Of a stretch of 30,886 nucleotides of DNA, positions 27,640-29,268 are shown in pieces. The notes below the pieces were generated by a model. The model had not been told where the DNA came from, ran no database searches, and was given only the letters and a program-made list of their open reading frames with translations. Each line of letters begins with the position of its first letter. Positions within the stretch are counted from its first letter, which is position 1. The position numbers and the translations under genes are program-made. This stretch comes from Escherichia coli. Lineage in GTDB: Bacteria; Pseudomonadota; Gammaproteobacteria; Enterobacterales; Enterobacteriaceae. The stretch lies in the NCBI RefSeq assembly GCF_003334765.1, contig NZ_QOWT01000042.1; one strand, 5' to 3'.

Positions 27640-29196
27640 TCAGGCGTGTTTTTCCAGCCACACCGCAAACGGTTCGGTATCAGCGGCTTCCATTTCCTGC
27701 TGACGGCGTTCAGACGCCTCGCGCTCGGCTACAAAATCCTCTTCGCGCAGAATTTCCAGCGGCTCTTCACGCAGCAGATTACGGTAGGCTTCTGCAAATG
27801 CTTTGCCTGTTCCGCCAATACCAGTATCAATCATAGACCTTAAGATACGGGCAGAGAAAGTCAGATCGGGATTATCGAAGCAGGCAACCAGTTCATCACA
27901 CACTTTCTGATACGCTTCGCCGCCGTTAATACTATCCAGCGTTTGCGCGACGCGTTTCAGATCGCGGAACAGATCTTTACCCACCTGCGGTAACGGGAAC
28001 TGTGCGGTTTCGCAGCCGATACCCAGCGTCAGACCCGGTTTGCGACCTTCGAGGATCACCCGGTTCCAGTTAACGCGTGTACAGGCAAGTTCGCTACTGC
28101 TCATTTCCGGTGCATCAGCCAGCGCACACCAGACCATAAACAGGTCGAGGAATCGCACCTGCTGTTCATCTACACCAATCGGCGAGAACGGGTTGATGTC
28201 CAGCGAACGCACTTCAATATATTCAATGCCGCCACGTAACAGCGCATCAGAAGGCGACTCGCCGCTGCGGGTAACGCGTTTTGGACGAATCGGCGCGTAC
28301 AGTTCGTTTTCAATCTGCAACACGTTGCTGTTGATTTGCAGCCTCTTACCGTCTTTCTCAATACCAATCTTCGCGTACTCTTCCGATGGCGTTTTGATTG
28401 CCTGTTTAAGGCCCGCTACGTACTCGTAAAGATCGTTGAAGGTAATACCAAGATTGCTTTGCGATTTATTGGTATAGCCGAGATCGCTCAAACGAAGAGA
28501 GGTCGCATACGGCAGGTAATACATACCGCACTCGGTTTTCTCAAACGGCAGCGACGTTGGTTTTCCTTGCAGGAAAGAAGAACAAATCGCCGGAGATGCA
28601 CCAAACAGATAAGGAATGACCCAACCGAAACGATAGTAATTGCGGATAACGCGGAAATAGCCCGCAGAAATTTTCTCTTTGGCATCAGCGCCCGAGATAT
28701 CACCGCACTTCGCTTGCCAGAATGCCATTGGCAAAGAGAAATTGTAGTGCACGCCGGAAATGGTTTGCATCAGCGCGCCGTAGCGATTTTTCAGCCCTTC
28801 ACGATACAGCGTTTTAAAGCGTCCGGTGTTAGAAGTGCCGTACTGTGCCAGTTCGATGTCCTGACCTTCTGCGATGTAGCATGGCATACTTAACGGCCAC
28901 ATCCGCTCATCGCCCATATTGCGCGCCGTATAACGATGCAGATCGCGCATAAAGGTCAGCATATGTTCAATATCACCATCCACTGGTGTAATGAATTCCA
29001 GCAATGCTTCCGCAAAATCGGTAGTAATCCATTTGTGCGTCAGTGCGGAACCTAATGCTTCAGGATGACCTGTTGTTGCCAGTGTGCCATCAGCATTAAC
29101 ACGCAAAGTTTCGCGCTCCAGCCCACGCTGTATCCCCTTTAACGCCTGAGGATGTTTTTCCAGCCAGGCCAGCGCCTGTGATACGTCCGGGATCAA
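27640..29196 (-). CDS. gshA: Glutamate-cysteine ligase, 518 aa, TTG start
   Basis: Full-length GshA ([34 protein letters not shown]...); start codon is TTG (reverse complement of caa at 29194-29196) with gggagg SD 7-8 nt upstream on the - strand. Confidence 0.93.
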
Positions 29197-29268
29197 ATTG
29201 ACCTCCCGCCTGTCAAAATCGTTTTAATTAGCATAACTGTAATGGTGACCATATGTGCAGGCCTACAA

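Follow-up and report, generated by a model that had tools for sequence, protein, structure and literature searches.

The weak UUG start codon of Escherichia coli gshA, its conservation and the invariant segment around it

In all likelihood, gshA, the gene for glutamate--cysteine ligase in the stretch of 30,886 nucleotides of Escherichia coli DNA analysed here (the window), is translated from a UUG codon, and it is the weakness of this start that holds the enzyme, GshA, at a modest level and leaves its synthesis responsive to polyamines. As such, the TTG start is correct and belongs to textbook knowledge: it is given in every annotation, its consequences were published in 2015, and it is thus already known. 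The original sequence paper on gshA, that of Watanabe and colleagues from 1986, is said to have noted the unusual TTG start already. What is new here, and minor, is the depth to which TTG is conserved among relatives of E. coli together with a frozen segment of 60 nt around the start in enteric bacteria; both hint at selection on the initiation of gshA translation and, perhaps, at some extra control of it. GshA is the first, committed and rate-limiting enzyme of glutathione synthesis, and because this step is committed and rate-limiting, the rate at which GshA is translated helps to set the main thiol buffer of the cell. The weak start accounts for the modest output of the enzyme and ties glutathione synthesis to polyamines, both when cells are in stationary phase and when they are under oxidative stress.

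The initiation site of gshA

The features on which the identification of the start depends are the following.

27640-29196, minus strand: gshA coding sequence (glutamate--cysteine ligase, 518 amino acids plus stop), from the open reading frame list, RefSeq, TIGR01434, PF04262 and 1V4G
29194-29196, minus strand: gshA initiation codon TTG, from the reverse-strand read, the open reading frame list and the RefSeq annotation
29201-29207, minus strand: Shine-Dalgarno (SD) sequence GGGAGGT (GGGAGG at 29207-29202), from the sequence read and the duplex with 16S rRNA
29224-29226, minus strand: TAA stop in frame with gshA, 10 codons upstream of the TTG, from the sequence read
29104-29106, minus strand: TTG at codon 31, the next in-frame canonical start candidate (rejected), from the sequence read
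28960-28962, minus strand: ATG at codon 79, the first in-frame ATG (rejected as the gshA start), from the sequence read

The first-pass annotation placed the start of gshA at the TTG 29194-29196 on the minus strand, and the open reading frame list and the RefSeq annotation of K-12 both arrive at the same base (in the RefSeq (PGAP) annotation of K-12, locus position 2655 is window position 29196; WP_000611804.1). It further held that no other start accounts for the full-length N-terminus of GshA and that there is no in-frame ATG nearby, and both statements are borne out. Between the TAA at 29226-29224, which occupies -30 in E. coli as well as in the majority of the relatives in a comparison of 51 loci, and the TTG there is no ATG, GTG or TTG in frame, whereas the first ATG downstream is codon 79. 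The equivalog profile TIGR01434 (NCBIfam) matches GshA with 916.5 bits (cut-off 393.3) and aligns its full length, positions 1-512 of 512, with residues 6-517 of the protein; PF04262 covers residues 10-380 (E = 1.3e-169), a full-length match above the curated cut-off being one of the two marks of this family that we used. The other mark, the motif G-[ILV]-E-[RK]-E some 25-30 residues from the start of proteobacterial glutamate--cysteine ligases, is present as GLERE at residues 25-29, and the median position of the same motif in 144 GshA cluster representatives is 27. In the E. coli structure, Hibi et al. (2004) are reported to have identified Glu27 and Glu29 as metal ligands. Finally, all 518 residues of GshA can be matched to 1V4G, the exceptions being a few cysteines that are serines in the crystallised chain; PDB entry 1V4G and three other entries contain the 518-residue chain with the N-terminus MIPDVSQ, which demonstrates that a protein with this N-terminus folds and is not independent proof of the start used in vivo.

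Thus, the TTG at 29194-29196 is the sole canonical start codon between the upstream stop and the GLERE motif, so that its choice is forced and is not a chance match, and we take it to be the start of gshA because no other canonical start codon gives the full-length protein. With respect to the ribosome-binding site, the earlier description of gggagg as a strong SD stands, but the distance of 7-8 nt assigned to it does not: the gap between GGGAGG and TTG is 5 nt (tcaat, 29201-29197), a normal spacing, and a value of 7-8 is obtained only when counting from the middle of the motif. Computation predicts a 7 bp duplex between GGGAGGT and the 3' end of 16S rRNA, at -11.5 kcal/mol.

Could translation nevertheless begin elsewhere, at the TTG of codon 31, the ATG of codon 79 or the near-cognate ATC of codon 2? 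We found no point in support of this reading and consider it to be wrong with near certainty. Codons 31 and 79 both lie past GLERE, so that the family profile would be truncated (with the codon 79 ATG, 78 residues covered by the Pfam and TIGRFAM profiles would be lost), and no SD is evident before either of them, whereas the strong SD lies 5 nt before the TTG, with GGAGGT at a fixed distance from the start in 51 of the 51 usable Enterobacteriaceae loci (64-99% protein identity; one genome per species was scanned). As for ATC, near-cognate codons support only 1-2% of AUG initiation; AUG, GUG and UUG are the canonical three (bioRxiv 10.1101/063800). The gene is absent from the TetRP start-site supplement.

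The window belongs to the E. coli chromosome, with the order emrB, luxS, micA, gshA, yqaA, yqaB, four tRNA-Arg genes, tRNA-Ser and csrA. The following features surround gshA.

23527-24057, plus strand: putative emrR (mprA), an open reading frame of 176 codons, named for its position just upstream of the emrA/emrB side
27559-27630, plus strand: MicA small RNA, by a match to Rfam (RF00078, 83.9 bits)
29269-29697, minus strand: yqaA
29694-29697, minus strand: GTG start of yqaA, in a 4-nt overlap with the yqaB stop
29694-30260, minus strand: yqaB
30544-30617, minus strand: tRNA gene
30819-30886, minus strand: second tRNA gene, cut by the end of the window

MicA lies 10 nt past the gshA stop codon, on the strand opposite to both gshA and luxS, and a luxS promoter has been described within the 3' end of gshA (PMC2956633). 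Overlaps such as that of the yqaA start with the yqaB stop are typical of translationally coupled genes. The two tRNA genes correspond to the tRNA-Arg cluster of K-12 between yqaB and csrA. With regard to the putative emrR, emrR is reported to owe its membership of the polyamine modulon to a distance of 10 nt between SD and AUG (PMC4405209).

Upstream of the gshA start there is one further conserved motif.

29230-29235, minus strand: conserved TATGCT (within TTATGCT, 29230-29236), a possible -10 element, from conservation

TTATGCT is found at -40 to -34 in every core Enterobacteriaceae locus, irrespective of the frame in which it is read, and may well be the -10 box of the promoter that serves gshA. 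On the strand of gshA, a consensus promoter scan made no call, at TTATGCT or elsewhere, and our literature search found no gshA promoter or transcription start for E. coli. In 11 loci (L030-L033, L035, L037, L041, L042, L045, L046 and L051), which come from Buttiauxella, some Cedecea and two genomes labelled Enterobacter sp., the ATG contained in the motif is in frame with gshA, at -39, 13 codons upstream of the start with no stop between. We rejected it as a start of gshA: it has no SD, its frame is shifted elsewhere by a 1-nt indel, and the SD and TTG are intact. Automatic annotation might pick this ATG in the Buttiauxella, Cedecea and Enterobacter sp. loci. In E. coli, the same ATG opens an out-of-frame open reading frame of 13 codons, the TGA of which overlaps the gshA TTG; given that the frame is not conserved, we do not regard it as a coding upstream open reading frame.

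Effect of the UUG codon and its persistence

The proposal of the first-pass annotation that the TTG start lowers translation and tunes the synthesis of glutathione agrees with published measurements, and the reporter comparison of TTG with ATG that it suggested as a check already exists, with the predicted result. In a gshA-lacZ fusion that contained the first 38 codons, replacement of UUG with AUG raised basal synthesis 3.0-fold, and the stimulation by polyamines fell from 2.4-fold with UUG to 1.1-fold with AUG, that is, was effectively removed; the fusions were carried on plasmids, and the strain was a polyamine auxotroph (Sakamoto et al., 2015; PMC4405209). A plasmid carrying gshA(ATG) also improved the growth and viability of the polyamine-starved strain under tellurite stress (PMC4405209, in which Watanabe et al., 1986 (NAR 14:4393) is cited for gshA as ref. 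20). The replacement of TTG with ATG is therefore a simple lever for higher GshA output, and one that is already established. In a broader context, AUG starts 83%, GUG 14% and UUG 3% of the E. coli genes, and the canonical non-AUG starts yield from 10 to 100% of the expression obtained with AUG (bioRxiv 10.1101/063800).

The explanation that we consider best supported by these data runs as follows. A strong and normally spaced SD precedes a UUG that pairs with the initiator fMet-tRNA less well than AUG, so that initiation proceeds at about one third of the AUG level. The reduced initiation keeps GshA at a modest level, and its synthesis responds to conditions that aid the binding of fMet-tRNA at weak starts, notably to polyamines in cells that have reached stationary phase or face oxidative stress. 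From here we infer that selection for the tuning of GshA synthesis has preserved the weak codon.

The principal challenge to this inference comes from the opposite notion, namely, that TTG is a neutral historical accident that is compensated by the strong SD and has been kept because start codons change slowly. The comparison of close relatives does not weaken this notion. Within E. coli, a 301-nt query around the gshA start is present in 5425 of 5426 complete genomes, with 100% identity to K-12 and O157:H7. Over the 61 nt from -30 to +31, 5407 of the 5425 genomes show no difference, and a query with ATG in place of TTG has no exact match in any E. coli genome. Among the 51 Enterobacteriaceae loci, gshA starts with TTG in 49, with GTG in two (Enterobacteriaceae bacterium B14 and a Tatumella) and with ATG at the homologous position in none. 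The start codons of the neighbouring genes in the same loci are equally invariant within the family (GTG in 46/46 for yqaA, ATG in 49/49 for luxS and in 49/49 for yqaB), and for this reason the constancy of TTG within the family is not remarkable in itself. Furthermore, weak starts in general tend to have a stronger and better conserved SD, as would be expected of compensation (Belinky et al., 2017; PMC5622118).

Distant relatives tell more. Here the sample consisted of the best-scoring 12 of the distant 50%-identity cluster representatives, 43-51% identical to GshA, which were taken unselected and for which the start codons are those called by a gene finder. Among these best-scoring 12, the called start is TTG in seven (L055, L057, L059, L060, L062, L064 and L067; position 601 in each), GTG in one and ATG in four; in three of the four ATG cases (L065, L066 and L068), the adjacent codon is TTG, which makes these ATG calls ambiguous. 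Two of the TTG cases (L059 and L060) belong to AT-rich genomes, with 21% and 25% G+C, and in both there is no other canonical start from the upstream stop to GIERE, and a strong SD precedes the TTG. One of the two is record BA000021, which we take to be Wigglesworthia. At least seven TTG starts among 12 would be expected with a binomial probability of about 2e-7 at a base rate of 4.35% (bioRxiv 10.1101/063800), a calculation that assumes independent lineages, which is only approximately true. The first letter of the protein is L in 6 and V in 5 of 150 proteins; we gave these counts no weight, since in most sources the initial residue has been converted to M.

The neutral scenario fits poorly with this persistence of TTG below 50% protein identity, including the genomes with 21% and 25% G+C. 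It also has to contend with the observation that, across genomes, genes starting with UUG are prone to move to AUG or GUG and do so at a measurable rate even when the genomes compared are closely related (Belinky et al., 2017; PMC5622118), and with the finding that the change to ATG is far from silent, causing a 3-fold effect on synthesis and altering the growth and viability of the polyamine-starved strain (PMC4405209). Thus, gshA conforms to the trend for a strong SD and runs against the trend for the switching of UUG, which argues for selection in favour of the weak codon in this particular gene, and we consider a neutral accident to be an improbable account of it.

The invariant segment around the start

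The conservation around the start extends over a segment longer than the codon itself.

29153-29214, minus strand: hyper-conserved block around the gshA start (-18 to +43), from per-base and codon conservation

In the core Enterobacteriaceae (50 unique rows), the per-base conservation of this block is about 0.9-1.0, synonymous sites included. The fraction of the commonest codon in gshA codons 1-10 is 0.93, compared to a mean of 0.66 for the gene and a maximum of 0.77 in other 10-codon windows, and the neighbours lack such an effect, the same measure for their codons 2-10 being 0.71 in luxS, 0.59 in yqaA and 0.68 in yqaB. The codons gta and tca, which are among the frozen ones, are not known to be favoured in E. 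coli, and hence codon bias does not explain the block. A GATC (Dam methylation) site (ttGATCc; 29193-29196, minus strand) overlaps the gshA start and is conserved together with the block.

An intriguing possibility is that the TTG is one part of a larger regulatory element in the mRNA or DNA that spans -18 to +43, in which case control would not be exerted through the strength of the codon alone; the candidates would be a small RNA, CsrA acting through three GGA motifs, or a small hairpin over the SD and the start. We regard such an element as a minority reading that deserves to be kept in view. The near-frozen codons 1-10, which have no counterpart in luxS, yqaA or yqaB, speak in its favour, as does the extension of the block to +43, past the footprint of the initiating ribosome. 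The sequence of the gshA start region contains three GGA motifs (-10 to -8, +10 to +12 and +34 to +36); leaders controlled by CsrA have at least two such motifs, one of them over the SD, and binding by CsrA is therefore conceivable. The consensus fold contains a predicted hairpin, GGAGGUCA-AUU-UGAUCCC, which would cover the SD and the start and includes one G-U-compatible change, and in a 124-nt context the bases of the SD and start are predicted to be mostly paired.

These predictions, however, have to be set against several negative results. The hairpin is weak (-7.6 kcal/mol, z = -0.28), no better than shuffled sequence, and folds of the longer leader, with z from -0.6 to -0.71, do not differ significantly from shuffled sequence either. 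There are no compensatory changes in the hairpin, with one pair changed on both sides and a covariation term of -0.05. The start region has no relevant match in Rfam even at E <= 5, and MicA pairs with the start region of gshA no more strongly than with shuffled sequence. A structured cis-regulatory leader, or a hairpin that occludes the SD, is thus unsupported by fold statistics, covariation and Rfam, and our literature search found no report of control of gshA by a small RNA or CsrA. In addition, the block is gone in two more distant loci (L048 and L049), both of which still start with GTG, so that a non-ATG start remains where the putative element does not.

The tuning of GshA synthesis through the weak UUG remains the preferred reading, and a bolder version of it can be formulated, in which the UUG start is an ancient, selected feature of proteobacterial gshA that, in the core Enterobacteriaceae, lies within an invariant segment of about 60 nt that would be the site or the structure used by a post-transcriptional regulator not described so far. 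This compound hypothesis is speculative, and we are inclined to doubt it. If true, it would imply regulation of glutathione synthesis beyond the published polyamine effect.

Comparison with known systems of translational control

The gene analysed here is the same as gshA of E. coli K-12 and B (gshI; UniProt P0A6W9, PDB 1V4G), and there is no difference between them. Its use of a weak start brings to mind infC, the gene for IF3: in both cases, a sub-optimal start codon appears to be kept by selection as a handle on initiation. The two differ in that infC has the non-canonical AUU, against which IF3 discriminates in a defined autoregulatory feedback loop, whereas the UUG of gshA is canonical, and we know of no feedback by GshA or glutathione on the initiation of GshA synthesis.

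The closest parallel is class 2 of the polyamine modulon, in which polyamines raise translation via the binding of fMet-tRNA. This class, defined by inefficient start codons, consists of cya, cra, spoT, uvrY, frr and gshA itself, which is a published member with a normal SD position (PMC7177335). In the window, gshA displays two traits that it shares with the class, a UUG or GUG start and, unlike the members of class 1, an SD at the normal distance. The third trait, stimulation by polyamines that disappears when the codon becomes AUG, is published for gshA (PMC4405209).
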